Program-made: the position numbers and the translations under genes | The notes under the pieces: model-generated | Seen by the model: only the letters and a program-made list of their open reading frames with translations | Told to the model about the DNA's origin: nothing | The model's database searches: none | Virus genome (UHGV): UHGV-0036853 | Reading direction: 5' to 3' (one strand) | Length of the DNA stretch: 64,000 nucleotides | Source: a virus | Part shown: in pieces, positions 25,819 to 61,062 of the stretch | Layout of the letters: each line of letters opens with the position of its first letter | How positions within the stretch are numbered: position 1 is the stretch's first letter

Positions 25819-26178
25819 TCAGCCTTTTTTCATGAGTTCTCGCTTGATTTCATCGGTACGCATCGTTACATCGGCAGCTGTGATCGCCTCGTTAAGTTTC
25901 ACGATGTCCTCGATTTCCTGCGGTGTCTTCTCCGCAAGATGGAAAATAGCAGCACGAATCACATCAGAGCGGGTGAATTTCTCGAAGCGAGGGATGAACT
26001 TCATCATCTCCAGCAGTTCGAAGTATTCGTCTTCCAGTGACATTGTGCGGCTTTTAATTTTCTCTTTGCCACGAGTCGGGCGTCCCTGTGGTCTGACTGG
26101 TTGGCGCAAAGGAGTTGTGTTCTTAGCCGGTGCATCAGGCTCTTTGCGCTTTGCTAGGTCACCCATTTTCATGGACAT
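25819..26178 (-). CDS. small partition protein (ParG/ParB-like centromere-binding candidate)
   Basis: 119-aa basic ORF immediately downstream of parA with overlapping stop/start. Confidence 0.45.
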   Translation of the reverse strand: MSMKMGDLAKRKEPDAPAKNTTPLRQPVRPQGRPTRGKEKIKSRTMSLEDEYFELLEMMKFIPRFEKFTRSDVIRAAIFHLAEKTPQEIEDIVKLNEAITAADVTMRTDEIKRELMKKG

Positions 26179-26846
26179 TATTCTTCTTCCTCCAGACTCA
26201 ACAGATAATCTACAAATTCTTCAAACTCGGCTTCCGCCTTTTTGTCGCGCTCGCTACCGGTCATTTCAAAGATAGAACGACCAGACTCTTCCGCATCATC
26301 GTAGACGTTGCGGTTATATAGATTGACAGGCGCAGACTCGATGCCAAACGTCTCAACAATCTCTTTAGCCGCCAGAATGCGAGACACTTGTGATGGCAAA
26401 GCCGGGCACTGGTTCATGACCGCGCGGACCTTCACTTTATCGTTTACATTGCGAACATTGTCGATAATAGGATCGATGTCACGTAAAGATTTCAAATCAC
26501 GACGCTTAGGACGCAGCGGGATAATGATAACGTCGGCCATCAGCATCGCTTGTCGCTGAATTTCGGAGTCAAAGCCACCAGCATCTACCACTACAAACTC
26601 AGCTCTACCCTGAAGCGATTTTAGGTGCTTAATGATGTCATCCTGAACGTATGCAAAAGGAATCAGCTCAAGATCTTCGTTCTGTCGACGGTCTTCACAC
26701 CAGCTTGTTGTAGTGCGCTGAATATCTATATCAGTGATATAAACCTTCTTCTTCTTTTTGACTTTCAGGCAAACGGCAATTTGCTGGGCAACAGTAGATT
26801 TGCCAGGCCCGCCCTTTGTGCCGCCAACCACAAAGATCTTGGTCAT
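26178..26846 (-). CDS. parA: ParA-family partition ATPase
   Basis: 222 aa; deviant Walker A GGTKGGPGKST; ParA/Soj layout. Confidence 0.8.
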   Translation of the reverse strand: MTKIFVVGGTKGGPGKSTVAQQIAVCLKVKKKKKVYITDIDIQRTTTSWCEDRRQNEDLELIPFAYVQDDIIKHLKSLQGRAEFVVVDAGGFDSEIQRQAMLMADVIIIPLRPKRRDLKSLRDIDPIIDNVRNVNDKVKVRAVMNQCPALPSQVSRILAAKEIVETFGIESAPVNLYNRNVYDDAEESGRSIFEMTGSERDKKAEAEFEEFVDYLLSLEEEE

Positions 26847-26980
26847 TGGAGAGTTCCCTTTGCGTATATAATTATCGTCTGAAACAACTTGTTTTCTTAT
26901 ATGTGATATAGCCTAAATGCCTACGGCTGTGGTGTAAAGGTTTAATGATAGGTACATAGATTTGGTAAGGACTTAATAAC

Positions 26981-48846: not shown

Positions 48847-48940
48847 AGATCCCTCTAAAACACACAGAGCGCGTCCATGCGCTCTAAAACAACTTGTTTA
48901 CTGCATCTGCTAACCAACTTGTTTTCTGGGGTGTTTAATT

Positions 48941-49030
48941 AGGTCTGGGCATATCTTACTAAGCCTGCTTCCGTATATATTTAATAAGTTACTTATTATT
49001 TATATATACAGAAGCAGGTCTTTAAATAAG
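48941..49030. repeat. AT-rich palindromic element, copy B (nested inverted repeats)
   Basis: Core cctgcttccgtatatatttaataagttacttattatttatatatacagaagcaggtc matches 25722-25812; outer arms ggtctggg / cccagacc. Confidence 0.6.
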
Positions 49031-49042
49031 CTCCCAGACCGA

Positions 49043-49309
49043 TTACATCACCAGTAACTTCGCTTTGGCTCGACCTAAAGTGGTTAACCCAAGAGTCCGG
49101 CGGTGATAGCGATTGTCACTGCGTTGGCGCGTATGCCCTTTCTCCACCAGCCCCTTTTTTATCAGAGCGCGAATTGAGAACTGGATACTTTGCTTGGTTG
49201 TCTTGTACGGCAAAACTTCAAGCAATTCGTCCAGATCAAGTAGATGACCTCGCTCATAACCGAGATTGAGCGTTTTGATGATGTCCTTTTGTTTATCGGT
49301 TAACGTCAT
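49043..49309 (-). CDS. small basic DNA-binding protein (winged-helix-like)
   Basis: 88-aa ORF, Lys/Arg-rich. Confidence 0.4.
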   Translation of the reverse strand: MTLTDKQKDIIKTLNLGYERGHLLDLDELLEVLPYKTTKQSIQFSIRALIKKGLVEKGHTRQRSDNRYHRRTLGLTTLGRAKAKLLVM

Positions 49310-49318
49310 GGCAAATCC

Positions 49319-50209
49319 TTATGCCGGTAAAGCAATTTCTAACGGTTTATCCAAAGGTTGTTTGTCGAATGCCAGCAGTGGCAGCGTGTCAGGCAGTCGA
49401 CGGCCAAAGTCAGGGTTTCGGTACACACCATACAACGGAGACGTAAAGCTCAGGTTGTGAATGTCCTTGAGCAGCTTCACAATGCTGGCCTCGTCCACCA
49501 GACTGTCGGCAATGTCCTGAATCGTCGTGCCACGATTCCGCCCAGCTTTTGCCAGGGAACTGTTCTTGTGGTAGTCCGCCACCAGATCACGCAGTGCACG
49601 GCGACGACGAGACTCGCTCATTGCGAACAACTCTTTGACGATCGCCTCGTTATCACCCGGGTCAGAACGGAAATGGCGCTGGAATACACGCAGTGCACTT
49701 TCATAGCTCTTCGGTCGCTCAGGGCGGATGAACTTAAACCCTGCTTTCATGGCGAAGGGATTGTATTTGCTCATCGAGGACTGGATCTCAATGATTGGCC
49801 GGTCATGCATCCTGCTAACCAGGTTAATCATTCGATAAGAGACGCCTACGCCACGATACTGAGTATCCACAACTGAGCGACTGATCACCGCAAAGTTGTT
49901 ATTCACGTACCGACCCCAGTACTGGTTAGCCACGGTGGTATTAGTGGTTGGTTTCAACTTAGGAAACATGCGGTGGCGAGGTGCCAACAGTAGTTTCGGG
50001 TAAGCCATAACCACGACGCCCACCAGACGGTCATCAAGTTCGCAGCGATAGTAAGTTGGCGCGAAAGGTTTGCCGTCTGTTTTGTAGTGAAGCGACTTAA
50101 GAGCGTGCCAGTCCTCTACAGTTCCCTTTGTAACAGTCATTCGCTCCAGAAAGTCCAGATGACGCGGAAACTCTTCAGGGCGGTAGCGTTTAATGATGAT
50201 GTCCGTCAT
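49319..50209 (-). CDS. GNAT-like acetyltransferase-fold protein with C-terminal extension
   Basis: 296 aa; VGVVVMAY strand and motif-A-like RSVVDTQYRGVGVSYRMI; start overlaps upstream stop. Confidence 0.4.
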   Translation of the reverse strand: MTDIIIKRYRPEEFPRHLDFLERMTVTKGTVEDWHALKSLHYKTDGKPFAPTYYRCELDDRLVGVVVMAYPKLLLAPRHRMFPKLKPTTNTTVANQYWGRYVNNNFAVISRSVVDTQYRGVGVSYRMINLVSRMHDRPIIEIQSSMSKYNPFAMKAGFKFIRPERPKSYESALRVFQRHFRSDPGDNEAIVKELFAMSESRRRRALRDLVADYHKNSSLAKAGRNRGTTIQDIADSLVDEASIVKLLKDIHNLSFTSPLYGVYRNPDFGRRLPDTLPLLAFDKQPLDKPLEIALPA

Positions 50210-50871
50210 GAATGGACCTCATCGTGACTACCATTGTGATATTCCACCTTCACGCGTTCTTTGTAGTGCTTGGTGATCTGCATATCCGGGCGCAGCGCGT
50301 TCTTCAGGTCTTCGTGAGTCGTCGCCACCATTACCGTCGCACCAACCTTTCGAGCGGCACGCTGGAGGTTAGACGCCACAACCTGAGCGGTTACACGGTC
50401 GAGAACAGCGCCGAACTCGTCAGCAGCCCACACTTTAGCGCCTGACTCAATCAGTTTGGCAATCTTGAGACGATATTTCTGGCCGTCTGACATTTCAGAA
50501 GGCTTGCGAACAAACAGATATGCATCGTTCAGACCAGCCATAGATAACAACCCAAGCGCATCACTGGTCGTTTTGCCCAACTGATCGATGACGTTAACCT
50601 CATTATCGAAGGTAAAATCATCGATGGAGGCTACAGACAGCCCTTCATCCTTCATCTGTCGTTGCAACTCGCGCAGCACAACGGATTTGCCGGAACCGGA
50701 TTGGCCGGTGATGTACACCACATCGCCCTGCTTCACTTCCAGCTCCAGATTGTCGTAAAGCGTCCACTCTTTTTCGTCCAGGCCAAGCCCGAACGACTCA
50801 GCGATTTCCAACGTGCGCGTGGTTTTATTTACGCGTGTCTGAAACGATACGTTGATGATGTATTTGCTCAT
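50206..50871 (-). CDS. stand-alone ABC-type ATPase
   Basis: 221 aa; Walker A GQSGSGKS; signature-like SDGQKYRL; Walker B VWAADEF; H-loop TTHEDL. Confidence 0.65.
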   Translation of the reverse strand: MSKYIINVSFQTRVNKTTRTLEIAESFGLGLDEKEWTLYDNLELEVKQGDVVYITGQSGSGKSVVLRELQRQMKDEGLSVASIDDFTFDNEVNVIDQLGKTTSDALGLLSMAGLNDAYLFVRKPSEMSDGQKYRLKIAKLIESGAKVWAADEFGAVLDRVTAQVVASNLQRAARKVGATVMVATTHEDLKNALRPDMQITKHYKERVKVEYHNGSHDEVHS

Positions 50872-51536
50872 GCAGCCATCTCCCCGGAAGAGATCTTCTC
50901 CGCATATGCCACAAATGCGTCTACCCCGCTTTCTCCCGTCATTTCTTCCATGTGGGCAAGCAAATCACCAACAACAATGGCAGAGCCAGCAGGGAGCGTT
51001 TTAAAGCCCAATACGTCGACAACACGTACTTCTTCCGCTGCAACTTCACGACTGATCTCGGTGTGTTCATCCTTCTGTCGTTTAGTTTCTTCGCCAAGAT
51101 CGATAACTAGCGAGTCGGTGTCCATTTCTTCTGTCATACTGCCAACGAGAACATTCAACTCACGCTCTTCAAAGCCGAAAACCTCGATATCGTCCAGAAC
51201 AAGCGACTCAAGCTCTTTCTGTAGCTTAATTGCATCGTAATCAATGCTGGCAAGTCGGTTATCTTCAAGGCGCTTCGCACGAACCTCGTCATCACTGAGA
51301 TCATCGCGAACAATAACCGGTACGCGCTCAAGTCCAGCAAAAATTGCAGCCTCACGGCGGCCGTGGCCAGTAATAATTACGTCGTTCTTATCGACCGTAA
51401 TTGGCTGGTCAAATCCGCGCTTTTTAATGGCTGCGGCTAGATCTCGGATCTGCTGTTCATCATGCTTTTTGGCATTCATCTCATAGGGAATAAGATCTGC
51501 CGGGTCGCGATATACGATTTCAAACTTTTTGGTCAT
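50868..51536 (-). CDS. ParB/Srx-fold (ParB N-terminal domain) protein 2
   Basis: Motif ITGHGRREAAIFAGLERVPVIV; start set to the internal ATG that overlaps the upstream stop (track ORF extends to 51569). Confidence 0.6.
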   Translation of the reverse strand: MTKKFEIVYRDPADLIPYEMNAKKHDEQQIRDLAAAIKKRGFDQPITVDKNDVIITGHGRREAAIFAGLERVPVIVRDDLSDDEVRAKRLEDNRLASIDYDAIKLQKELESLVLDDIEVFGFEERELNVLVGSMTEEMDTDSLVIDLGEETKRQKDEHTEISREVAAEEVRVVDVLGFKTLPAGSAIVVGDLLAHMEEMTGESGVDAFVAYAEKISSGEMAA

Positions 51537-52234
51537 TACATACGCTCCTTGTAGTAGTCGACCAGCCACACCAGAGCCTCACCAGCGTTCTCCATTTCAT
51601 TACCGGTGTTAATAGCCTGTTCTTTGATGATGTTTTTTATGGTTTCTGCAACACGATCTGACGCATCGAAAGTTACTTTGAAGCGCATGGTCTGATGTTC
51701 CGCACCCACACGTTCGGTTTTCTCCCGTTTGTCGGTATCGACAGGCTCATCACTACCACGAGACAACGCCTCCAGTGCTTCAAGGTCGATTGCCGCCTCT
51801 TTTGCTAAAACCATCGAGATTTCGTCGTCATACGGGGCGATTTCAGACAGTTGATAGTCAAGTTCTGACTGAATTTCTTCAATGAAGCGTTGCAATGCGA
51901 TTTGGTCGTCTTCACCGTATCGCTCGTTGTCCACCAGTGACATCTGTTTAGCTACGACATCGCTAATTTTGCCCACAGAAAGCACTGGAACCGTTGAAAT
52001 TCCTTGCTCAATAGCGGCACGCCAGCGATGTTCACCGCCGAGGATTTCAAAAAATCCATCTTCAAGTTCACGAGCCAAAATTGGCTTAAAAAAGCCCAAT
52101 TTTTCGATAGAACCTTTCAGTTTTTCAAAATTCTGCGCACCAACCGAATTGGTGTTCCAGGTATTCGGGCGAAGGTTGGCAACATCAACCTGCAAAATCG
52201 TGATTTTTACATCCATTTTATTGCTACAATCCAC
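51536..52234 (-). CDS. ParB/Srx-fold (ParB N-terminal domain) protein 1
   Basis: 232 aa; motif ILGGEHRWRAAIEQGISTVPV. Confidence 0.6.
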   Translation of the reverse strand: MDCSNKMDVKITILQVDVANLRPNTWNTNSVGAQNFEKLKGSIEKLGFFKPILARELEDGFFEILGGEHRWRAAIEQGISTVPVLSVGKISDVVAKQMSLVDNERYGEDDQIALQRFIEEIQSELDYQLSEIAPYDDEISMVLAKEAAIDLEALEALSRGSDEPVDTDKREKTERVGAEHQTMRFKVTFDASDRVAETIKNIIKEQAINTGNEMENAGEALVWLVDYYKERM

Positions 52235-52298: not shown

Positions 52299-53858
52299 AT
52301 GACTGTTCGGATTGTATCTAACGCAGTAAATGCGCTTATTTCTGGCGCAGATGACAAGGTAAAGCAACTGGTGCAGCAAATGTTGAGCTACGAAGTCGAG
52401 ACTGGCGACTGGAAGGGCACAAGCACGATGTTCAACTGGAGTAAAAACTCGTTCCCTGCTGGCTTTGCCAAGCCTGTAGCGGCGAACTTGAACAAGGCGG
52501 GCATCAAATGTGTTCATATCCGCAAAGACAAAGCCCCGGCGCTTGGTAAACCAAATCCGGCGGTTAACCCATTCCCATACAATCCTGATTATGCGTATCA
52601 GGATCAGACTGTGGAAACACTGGTTCGAGAGGGAATGATGATTGCGCAGATCGCTACTGGTGGCGGGAAATCTAACGTTGCCTGCAAAGCAGCTGCACGT
52701 ATCGGTCGAATGACATTATTTTTAACAACCCGCTCTGTTCTGATGTTTCAAATGGCCGAAAACTTCCAGAGATCCATCGACTACCGCGCCGAAAATGGCG
52801 AACCGTGGTTAAAAGACCAAAAGGTTGGAGTCATTGGCTCGGGTGAGTTCCAGGTATCACGACATATCAACGTCGCTACAGTTCAAACTCTTGCAAGTTT
52901 CCTCGAAGAACCACCACGCGATGCAACACCAGATAAGAAAAGCTACCACCTCAAACGTCGGGAGTTGGTGAAACGCTTCCTTTCAAGTGTCTCTCTTCTT
53001 ATTCTGGAAGAGGCGCATGAGTCTTCAGGCTCAAATTTCTATGACATCGCCAGATTATGTGTGAACGCAGACTATCGTCTGGCGCTTACAGCCACGCCGT
53101 TCATGAAGGATTCGACGGAAGCCAACATGCGCCTGATGGCGGTGGCCGGGCGAATTGAAATTAAAGTCACAGAAAAGTACCTGATTGATCGAGGCATTCT
53201 GGCAAAGCCGTACTTCCTTTATCATAAAGTTGCCTACAAGCCAGACGAGGCCAGAATCAAGGCCGAACTTGCCAACAAACACCTAAATTTTAGAGTAGGT
53301 ATGAGCACTGCCTACCAAAAGGCTTATCAGCTGGGCATCGTGTATAATTTGGGACGTAACGAGGCCATAGTACGAGATGCATTGCTCTATAAGCAACATT
53401 CTCTCAATTGTATGACTCTGGTTCGTCTTAAACGCCACGGGCAAATCCTGATGGAAATGATGAAAGAGTCCGGCCTTAGAGTTGACTTCATCTATGGGGA
53501 ATCTAACCAGGCCACAAGGCAAGCAAAGCTGAACAGTTTAGCGTCTGGAGAAATAGATGTTTTAATAGGCTCGACTATTCTGGATGTCGGTGTTGATGTG
53601 CCAAGCGTTGGCGCGGTCATTCTTGCTGGTGGTGGGAAAGCAGAAGTTGAAATGAGGCAGCGTGTCGGTCGTGGCTTACGAGCCAAGAAGAATCAGGCAA
53701 ACGTATGTTTTATCACTGATTTTATTGACATTAGCAACAAATATCTGTTGTCTCACTCTTATGAGCGAAAACACATCATCGACACCACACCTGGCTTTGC
53801 AGAAGGTGTATTGCCTATTGATGGCGCATTCGATTTTGGAGTTCTGAAACGAGATTAG
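52299..53858 (+). CDS. superfamily 2 DNA/RNA helicase (DEAH-like)
   Basis: 519 aa; Walker A ATGGGKS; motif II LLILEEAH; motif III LTATP; motif VI VGRGLR. Confidence 0.8.
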   Translation: MTVRIVSNAVNALISGADDKVKQLVQQMLSYEVETGDWKGTSTMFNWSKNSFPAGFAKPVAANLNKAGIKCVHIRKDKAPALGKPNPAVNPFPYNPDYAYQDQTVETLVREGMMIAQIATGGGKSNVACKAAARIGRMTLFLTTRSVLMFQMAENFQRSIDYRAENGEPWLKDQKVGVIGSGEFQVSRHINVATVQTLASFLEEPPRDATPDKKSYHLKRRELVKRFLSSVSLLILEEAHESSGSNFYDIARLCVNADYRLALTATPFMKDSTEANMRLMAVAGRIEIKVTEKYLIDRGILAKPYFLYHKVAYKPDEARIKAELANKHLNFRVGMSTAYQKAYQLGIVYNLGRNEAIVRDALLYKQHSLNCMTLVRLKRHGQILMEMMKESGLRVDFIYGESNQATRQAKLNSLASGEIDVLIGSTILDVGVDVPSVGAVILAGGGKAEVEMRQRVGRGLRAKKNQANVCFITDFIDISNKYLLSHSYERKHIIDTTPGFAEGVLPIDGAFDFGVLKRD

Positions 53859-60908: not shown

Positions 60909-61062
60909 CACAACTCCGTAAACAACTTGTTTTCTCAATGGCGTAAATAATACCAGTGAGAAAACGGCTACAAAGCATATTGATCAGGTACATGAGCGAT
61001 ATGCAGGTTCTTCCCTGCGGCTACAGATGAAGTTAAGCCAGCATTGCTGGCTTTGGTTGGGT

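Follow-up and report, generated by a model that had tools for sequence, protein, structure and literature searches.

We identified a module of five minus-strand genes directly ahead of the terminase genes in a 64,000-nucleotide stretch of viral DNA (UHGV virus genome UHGV-0036853; the whole of this stretch is referred to here as the window), which represents an SSU5-type phage-plasmid of Escherichia coli. The five genes lie across 52234-49043 and encode two ParB-like proteins (ParB1 and ParB2), an ABC-type ATPase, a GNAT-like protein and an 88-aa protein (Table 1). The 3.4-kb stretch that carries them shares 98-99% identity with Escherichia phages Cyrano, PhiR41_1 and CMS-2020a and 85% identity with Salmonella phage SSU5. 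PLSDB contains 792 plasmids with this stretch, most of them non-mobilizable. Each of the five genes matches a PHROG family over its full length, and 341 homologues of the GNAT-like protein were found, at identities as low as approximately 41%; the five are therefore real genes and not chance open reading frames (ORFs).

A first-pass annotation, made by a model from the letters of this DNA, had described a minus-strand operon of this composition upstream of the terminase, with overlapping stop and start codons in the first four genes, and both descriptions were borne out by the ORFs and their PHROG matches. The junction between ParB1 and ParB2 reads TAATG, a 1-nt overlap with an AAGGAG Shine-Dalgarno sequence upstream, and the ParB2/ABC and ABC/GNAT junctions both read ATGA, with a 4-nt overlap each. 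Through these three overlaps the first four genes are translationally coupled, and the gene for the 88-aa protein follows the GNAT gene after a gap of 9 nt. The true start of ParB2 is the ATG at 51536 and not the upstream GTG chosen by the ORF lister, a position on which phrog_930 and the Cyrano annotation agree. On the upstream side, ParB1 and a helicase gene are transcribed divergently over a gap of 65-83 bp, an arrangement kept throughout the phage family. Downstream of the module there is a gap of 197 bp, followed by the genes for TerS and TerL and by the portal gene.

Table 1. Features of the five-gene module and its immediate surroundings in the window.
Feature	Position	Strand	Remarks
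ParB1	52234 (GTG) or 52216 (ATG, Cyrano annotation) to 51536	-	232 aa or 226 aa
ParB2	51536-50868	-	222 aa; start ATG 51536
ABC-type ATPase	50871-50206	-	221 aa; soluble
GNAT-like protein	50209-49319	-	296 aa, pI 9.8
88-aa protein	49309-49043	-	pI 10.2; phrog_900 end to end
Palindrome	48942-49040	.	99 nt, centre near 48990
AACAAGTTG direct repeats and terminator-like hairpin	48856..48923	-	ahead of the TerS ribosome-binding site
TerS	48846-48214	-	phrog_867
TerL	48214-46958	-	after the module in every related phage
UvsW-like superfamily 2 (SF2) helicase	52299..53858	+	Pfam ResIII, DEAD, Helicase_C

The ATPase is a member of Pfam ABC_tran (PF00005; 50.1 bits against a cutoff of 25) and matches nucleotide-binding domains in the PDB. 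All of its ABC motifs are intact, namely Walker A (GQSGSGKS), the signature (SDGQ), Walker B with the catalytic glutamate (AADEF), the D-loop (GAVLD) and the H-loop (TTHED), and its core residues are invariant in the ABC–GNAT fusions described below. No membrane protein that might act as an ABC transporter permease is encoded in the operon; the partner of the ATPase is instead the fused or adjacent GNAT. The GNAT-like protein has a GNAT core at about residues 20-165 and, after it, a conserved helical C-terminal domain (residues 170-296). It shows the two features that define the GNAT superfamily, the fold and the beta4-alpha3 motif A (Q/R-x-x-G-x-G/A), to which the pyrophosphate of acyl-CoA binds in GNATs, and both motif A and other active-site-like residues are invariant within its family. 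A search of the PDB with its sequence returned a chance match to AlkD alone (E about 1). Some relatives exceed the Pfam GNAT thresholds.

A profile of the GNAT-like family, run against 1.84 billion cluster representatives, gathered 899 members. The top of this list consists of close full-length homologues of approximately 300 aa together with fragments. The distant members are mostly proteins of about 450-500 aa in which an N-terminal ABC domain is fused to a C-terminal GNAT-like domain. In 16 aligned fusions the motifs of both window proteins were found from end to end (INxSF...GDxVYITGxSGSGKS, SDGQKYR, DEF...LD, HY(K/R), RGxG and YNPF), and the ABC protein of the window is 43-51% identical to the N-terminal half of fusions in 80 viral contigs. 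Since the fused family shares their motifs along both halves, the ABC and GNAT proteins should not be read as separate, unconnected components; by these alignments the two window genes represent the split form of one widespread fused ABC–GNAT protein of the COG2401 type.

The label of COG2401, ‘ABC-type ATPase fused to a predicted acetyltransferase domain’, has been attached to both protein types by IMG and by the annotators of Cyrano, and it is from these annotations that the name is taken here. The ABC and GNAT proteins align over their whole length with the two halves of the COG2401-type fusions (MK0520-like; PHROGs 293, 886 and 11143). In contrast to those fusions, the enzyme in the window is made from two translationally coupled genes, which in SSU5 and others are separated by small ORFs, and its GNAT half bears an additional conserved C-terminal domain of about 125 aa. 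The function of the COG2401 family is undescribed, so that membership supplies a name and no explanation. Among the ABC–GNAT relatives (P0285, P0298 and P0324; L095/L096), one has its ABC domain interrupted by an intein that contains a LAGLIDADG domain, and others form part of a Prim-Pol/RecA replication module in which they are joined to a family-B DNA polymerase.

Both ParB-like proteins are members of Pfam ParB_N (PF02195; cutoff 26.3 bits), ParB1 with 49.9 bits and ParB2 with 35.0 bits, and both have the GxxR motif for phosphate binding. ParB1 matches phrog_723 end to end and carries the motif GGEHRWRAA, in which GGEHR is invariant among orthologs. ParB2 matches phrog_930 (E = 1e-112) and also phrog_498, a ParB-methyltransferase (MTase) family (E = 5e-32), and carries the motif GHGRREAA, in which GHGRR is invariant among orthologs. 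Its N-domain is similar to that of phage ParB-methyltransferase fusions and to the N-terminus of the PADLOC MTase_II model (E = 2.7e-17). Against the PDB, ParB1 matches the Spo0J/ParB/Noc structures with E from 1e-9 to 1e-5, and ParB2 likewise matches Spo0J, ParB and Noc. With the partition ParBs Spo0J, P1 ParB and Noc, ParB1 shares the ParB/Srx N-terminal fold, a GERR-like box (GEHRWRAA) and a DN-x-R motif resembling box III, and PDB matches to Spo0J, ParB and Noc reach E = 3e-9.

Outside the N-terminal fold the two proteins differ from one another. In ortholog alignments each consists of the N-domain, an acidic linker and its own conserved C-terminal domain of about 55 aa, which in ParB1 has no assigned fold. 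No helix-turn-helix (HTH) family was matched by either protein in the Pfam scan. The two C-terminal domains showed no detectable homology to each other (hhalign E = 0.12) and no meaningful PDB profile match, and by these comparisons ParB1 and ParB2 appear to have only the N-terminal fold in common. The first-pass annotation had called them paralogous, a term that suits the shared N-domain fold and fails for the remainder, given the different PHROGs and the lack of detectable homology between the C-terminal domains. A ribbon-helix-helix assignment for the C-terminal domains, derived from a beta-alpha-alpha reading, likewise found no support in these comparisons. Homologue searches with ParB1 and with the ABC ATPase gave only near-identical sequences among the top 120 listed and yielded no deep alignment of ParB1.

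The neighbourhood of the module was compared among related phages, as the first-pass annotation had proposed, and its order proved to be conserved. In the SSU5 lineage this order is the helicase gene, divergently transcribed from the others, and then ParB, ParB, ABC, zero to three small variable ORFs, GNAT, the small winged-helix protein, a gap, TerS, TerL and portal. It is kept at approximately 41-45% protein identity in an Ectothiorhodospira contig, a 3.3-Mb metagenomic contig and marine contigs, and it is kept too in isolated siphoviruses of about 105-120 kb from Pseudomonas (nickie), Rhizobium (the RHEph10 group), Stenotrophomonas and Xanthomonas. The hosts of the syntenic module thus span Escherichia to Rhizobium and marine bacteria, and the related phages that retain it without a plasmid annotation include nickie, RHEph10-like phages, ANB28 and JGB6. 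Because the order is conserved at this level of identity in isolated siphoviruses, the module belongs to the core of this family of phages rather than to the cargo of its plasmid form. In SSU5 (L007, 3312-3566), in the relatives L001 (6961-7999) and L003 (7598-7997) and in Rhizobium phage L010 (4543-5398), one to three small unrelated ORFs separate ABC from GNAT, among them Phage_gp49_66, RyR-domain and DUF2829 proteins; the tight coupling of ABC and GNAT in the window is therefore not universal.

We also found the combination outside this family, where a ParB of about 170-200 aa, an ABC protein and a GNAT, fused or split, lie directly upstream of the terminase genes in multiple phages. These include Streptococcus phage Javan523, Oenococcus phages, Arthrobacter phage EastWest, Leptospira phages LE3/LE4 and the metagenomic prophage L094. 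In Lactococcus phage P335 the genes are Orf23-25 and come after Orf22, which is annotated as the transcriptional regulator ALT, and in Pasteurella phage Pmp13 the module comes after Q-like and lysis genes. In Gordonia phage Sisko, gp1-gp2 are followed by a formyltransferase, gp3 (L099, 1814-2464), and then by the terminase, and in Rhodococcus phage Jace, gp85-86 are followed by a PanD-like decarboxylase, gp87 (L102, 7592-8017). The formyltransferase and decarboxylase hint at a lineage-specific elaboration of a chemical modification pathway, and their presence beside the pair favours such a pathway over packaging mechanics.

In 80 uncultured viral contigs the ABC–GNAT fusion directly follows TerL; elsewhere it lies in replication modules far from the terminase or is joined to a family-B DNA polymerase. 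Among these 80 IMG/VR contigs (L013-L092), 28 end at the stop codon of the fusion or within 300 bp after it, and none begins within 300 bp before the gene. We considered whether these contig ends might be genome ends and rejected the idea, since they are indistinguishable from provirus or gene-boundary trimming; a variable region is another option.

Expression was taken from a published supplementary table of RNA-seq for the Cyrano lysogen (PMC9928086), Cyrano being 99% identical. The genes CYRAN_119-122, which correspond to ParB1, ParB2, ABC and GNAT, had 5-9.5 normalised counts against a stated background median of 9.8, and TerS and TerL had 7-8. The same table gives 50 normalised counts for ParA, 133 for RepA, 96 for the repressor and 46 for the divergent helicase. 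In the Cyrano lysogen, then, neither the module nor the terminase is transcribed above background, which points to a module of the lytic cycle. Since it is silent in the lysogen and is kept in phages without a plasmid annotation, a role in partition or in a defence expressed by the lysogen is unlikely.

The reading that we favour, at somewhat less than even confidence, is that the module encodes a ParB-assisted, ATP-driven acyltransferase that modifies the phage DNA after replication and before packaging. In such a system the ParB1/ParB2 pair would bind replicated phage DNA and would activate the enzyme, or position it, on double-stranded DNA. The ABC domains would dimerise via ATP, and the DNA would be clamped or opened. 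The GNAT domain would move an acyl group onto a DNA base, most likely from acyl-CoA because GNAT motif A is intact, and progeny genomes would be modified just ahead of packaging by the adjacent terminase and would thereby be shielded from host nucleases. Here we infer DNA as the substrate and, likewise, which acyl donor is used, what the ParBs do and what purpose the module serves. Among the roles put forward in the first-pass annotation, acylation of DNA fits best and packaging initiation is a live rival, while defence expressed from the lysogen is unlikely given the silence of the module in Cyrano.

Support for ParB-assisted DNA acylation comes from the fusion, from the recurrent neighbourhood and from the DNA-centred contexts, which include the polymerase fusions. 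The best viral structural match of the GNAT-like protein is Mom (BFVD E = 6e-5), a GNAT that has been shown to modify double-stranded DNA directly (PMC13219725). A histidine-tyrosine (H-Y) dyad is invariant in the GNAT-like family, in the fusions and in Mom, and the substitutions H58A and Y59A in Mom drastically lower its activity. In Mom of phage Mu, a tRNA-dependent DNA adenine aminoacyl/carbamoylmethyl transferase, residues H58-Y59 align with the dyad of the window protein, and D149, G156, Y159 and N163 align with its D115, G122, Y125 and N129; the residues essential in Mom are R111, S124, D149 and R151. Both proteins are basic. Mom is a lytic-phase gene in Mu, and the window GNAT, judged by the timing of its neighbours, would likewise be late and pre-packaging. 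The two also differ, as no equivalent of the HTH-like insertion of Mom was identified in the window GNAT, whose family retains a classical motif A of the acyl-CoA type. Furthermore, the window GNAT would rely on an ABC ATPase and two ParBs, whereas Mom acts alone with Gly-tRNA.

There are also precedents for a ParB-fold partner. The 5mYOX-ParB systems, whose enzymes are 5-methylpyrimidine (thymine) dioxygenases, and DpdA/DpdB resemble the window in placing a short ParB-fold protein, which has a nucleotide-binding N-domain and a C-terminal domain but no recognisable HTH, beside an enzyme in a phage DNA-metabolism context. In the 5mYOX systems the ParB activates the enzyme on double-stranded DNA, and it is required on double-stranded DNA only (PMC13229309). 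DpdB is described, in the summary given by PMC12839542, as a ParB-like ATPase that works with DpdA and aids base insertion. In addition, ParB-methyltransferase and ParB-acetyltransferase fusions exist (PMC12704722). The architecture of ParB1 and ParB2, with ParB_N, an acidic linker, a C-domain of about 55 aa and no HTH match, is by sequence compatible with the 5mYOX-ParB class. The window differs from both systems in that the partner is an ABC–GNAT protein and not a dioxygenase or transglycosylase, and in that its two ParBs are non-identical.

A number of points weigh against DNA acylation. There is no report of a modified base in a phage of the SSU5 type, and the Cyrano annotation has no further modification-pathway gene except an adenine methyltransferase. 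The kinship with Mom lies at the level of the fold, with hhalign E = 0.006-0.008 and a probability of 5-6%, and no counterpart of the catalytic S124 of Mom was identified in the GNAT-like protein. The pattern D-x6-G-x2-Y-x3-N was matched in 0/16 fused relatives, which have a classical RGxGLG motif A, and we have downgraded a specific kinship with Mom on this ground. A ParB was found within 7 kb of the fusion in only 1/80 of the contigs in which it follows TerL, and ParB is therefore not obligatory for the enzyme. The AlphaFold2 (AF2) model of ParB1, built from a shallow alignment, had a pLDDT of 38 and gives no indication of how the protein might bind DNA. More generally, nucleic acids are a much less common target of GNATs than proteins and small molecules, and the constant adjacency to the terminase is equally expected of a packaging factor. 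A broader proposal, which we hold to be rather doubtful, is that ParB, ABC and GNAT together form a widespread and so far overlooked phage system in which double-stranded DNA is acylated in an ATP-dependent manner, with the ABC-type ATPase and the ParB-fold NTPases opening the duplex to the transferase shortly before packaging. It would be a second class of DNA-modifying GNAT after Mom and mechanistically distinct from it.

The elements between the GNAT gene and TerS bear on the question of packaging. The 88-aa protein is probably a MarR/LexA-like winged helix, as suggested by weak but mutually consistent profile matches to 3gfl with the MarR profile (E = 0.012, covering the recognition helix and wing), to Lrs14/Sta1 (E = 0.003-0.004), to LexA_DNA_bind (E = 0.07) and to a winged-helix tail in PADLOC (E = 4.5e-5). 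With it, all five domain calls of the first-pass annotation (ParB twice, ABC, GNAT and a small DNA-binding protein) hold. Its gene is kept at the same position across the whole phage family in the ortholog alignment, and the protein may be a regulator rather than a subunit of the enzyme. In RNA-seq of LF82, the Cyrano gene for this protein (CYRAN_123) reached log2 values of 5.5-6.6 in some conditions, compared with approximately 3-3.7 for the upstream GNAT gene, which suggests a separate promoter or differential RNA stability.

The palindrome in front of the small terminase gene had been noted in the first-pass annotation at about 80 bp; it is present and measures approximately 99 nt. It is compound, with GC-rich outer arms and a TATATA-rich core, and has a folding energy of -50.6 kcal/mol (z = -9.9 against shuffles). 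In L001, L002, L003 and Rhizobium phage L010 the same gap holds large AT-cored palindromes of unrelated sequence. The linear GenBank records of SSU5 (JQ965645) and Cyrano (OV696614) both break inside the palindrome loop (approximately 48981/48982), about 8 nt off its centre. This could reflect real cohesive ends (cos) or an arbitrary or assembly break; no published data on the genome termini of SSU5 were found. The palindrome may be a cos or a site for protein binding; alternatively, it may form an RNA hairpin or act as an insulator that separates the late operon from the module.

Closer to TerS there are direct repeats of AACAAGTTG at 48915-48923 and 48890-48898. This sequence occurs four times in the window against 0.85 expected, always on the minus strand, with the other copies at 26885-26893 and 60923-60931. 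The copy at 26885-26893 is approximately 40 nt upstream of a 222-aa ORF (26178-26846) that equals the annotated ParA of Cyrano in length, a likeness by length only. The AACAAGTTG copies may be a shared promoter or operator element. Pseudomonas phage nickie has a palindrome containing ACAAGTTGTT at the equivalent site before TerS. A terminator-like GC hairpin with a T-run, conserved in SSU5, lies at 48886-48865 on the minus strand directly before the TerS ribosome-binding site, and could be a promoter-proximal terminator, possibly under the control of antitermination. The layout of these sites, and an RNA level of the 88-aa gene that varies partly on its own, suggest that the 88-aa protein, the palindrome and the repeats may stand outside the enzyme module; their probable role is to regulate the late (packaging) operon or set its limits, or to mark cos.

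A packaging-initiation accessory is a rival explanation of the module, which we consider unlikely. Here the ParBs and/or the winged-helix protein would bind the palindrome or cos, the ABC protein would remodel or bridge the DNA, and the terminase would be helped to recognise, cut or load concatemers, in analogy to HNH or IHF-type terminase helpers, with the GNAT in a structural or regulatory role. Such a function would account for a module that adjoins terminase genes in several unrelated phage lineages and is silent in the lysogen along with the terminase, and for a large palindrome that is conserved between module and terS across the family and contains the breaks of the SSU5 and Cyrano linear records. 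It would also be in keeping with the nicking of DNA by some ParB/Srx proteins, as described in literature cited within PMC12839542. However, ABC–GNAT fusions occur in replication modules far from the terminase and are also joined to DNA polymerase B, and phages with the fusion beside TerL have no ParB and no obvious palindrome. The invariant motif A and active-site-like residues of the GNAT suggest catalysis and not a scaffold, and neighbours such as the formyltransferase and decarboxylase do not suit a packaging role. Adjacency to the terminase does not discriminate between packaging and DNA acylation, because DNA-modification genes are often found beside terminase genes as well.

ATPases are coupled to GNATs in RNA acetyltransferases of the TmcA type, a precedent for a further explanation, ATP-dependent acylation of a target other than DNA. 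That target might be a DNA-bound or virion protein, a host nucleoid or defence protein, a tRNA or other RNA, on the model of TmcA, or else a small molecule, for example a polyamine, and the ParBs would be NTP-gated regulators. We rate this explanation low. It would agree with an enzyme that appears to work without ParB in many phages, as the 1/80 contigs with a ParB suggest, and a bacterial ParB–acetyltransferase fusion that binds GTP has an unassigned substrate (PMC12704722). However, the contexts of the ABC–GNAT proteins are consistently those of DNA replication or packaging, polymerase fusions included, the DNA-modifying Mom is the best viral structural match, and in phages the enzymes with which ParB-fold partners have been linked to date are ones that act on DNA (PMC13229309, PMC12704722).

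It is improbable that the module serves anti-defence or superinfection functions by a route other than modification of its own DNA, for instance as a ParB/Srx NTPase or nuclease that targets DNA or nucleotides of the host or of a competitor. Nuclease and NTPase roles in genetic conflicts have been described for ParB/Srx proteins encoded by mobile elements (Maindola et al. 2014, as cited in PMC10853773), and in the linear GenBank records of SSU5 and Cyrano the module is terminal, at a record end that need not be the physical end of the virion DNA. However, it is a syntenic core at about 45% identity in hosts from Escherichia to Rhizobium and marine bacteria and not a variable accessory island, and PADLOC gave no specific match. 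Finally, a second plasmid-partition system of the ParB centromere-binding type, for which the two ParB_N proteins and a nearby palindrome readable as a parS-like site might speak, is already largely refuted and has next to no probability, as the operon has no cognate ParA, both ParBs fall short of the partition model TIGR00180 (43.3 and 43.0 bits against a cutoff of 58.45) with no HTH detected, the lysogen expresses the separate ParA and RepA but not the operon, and the module is kept in related phages without a plasmid annotation and also in small integrating or lytic phages.

The first-pass annotation had been unable to assign this combination to any described system, and we agree. In the literature, no description was found of a ParB–ABC–GNAT module, of its link to the terminase or of its function, and the PADLOC and NCBIfam libraries gave no specific family for the module proteins. 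The individual folds and a long-standing, uncharacterised fused COG were known before. Pending proof of the substrate, it is best filed with the ParB-associated DNA-modification modules of phages.

Clinical Klebsiella, E. coli, Enterobacter, Salmonella and Yersinia harbour SSU5-type phage-plasmids in abundance, and the module also stands beside the terminase in well-studied groups such as lactococcal P335-type phages, streptococcal prophages and the actinophages of SEA-PHAGES. Its genes are routinely mislabelled as ‘ABC transporter’, ‘partition protein’ or ‘DNA methylase’. Whatever the function, these three misleading annotations can be replaced by one conserved lytic-cycle module, with partition largely refuted. 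If the module does acylate DNA, both the chemistry of its base modification and its way of countering restriction would be new, and a ParB fold and a soluble ABC ATPase would have a defined role as access factors for a DNA-modifying enzyme. Such a system would be present in the SSU5-type phage-plasmids of Enterobacteriaceae and also in dairy, actinobacterial and spirochaete phages, and the four-gene cassette would be directly testable by heterologous expression.

Two further observations concern the surroundings of the module. Cyrano encodes a second small ‘ABC transporter ATP-binding protein’ (CYRAN_75, 74621-75265), located after a dihydrofolate reductase gene. In addition, a gene of the dCMP-deaminase family lies a few kb upstream of the helicase gene in distant relatives (L001, 1108-1569; L002, 2695-3183).

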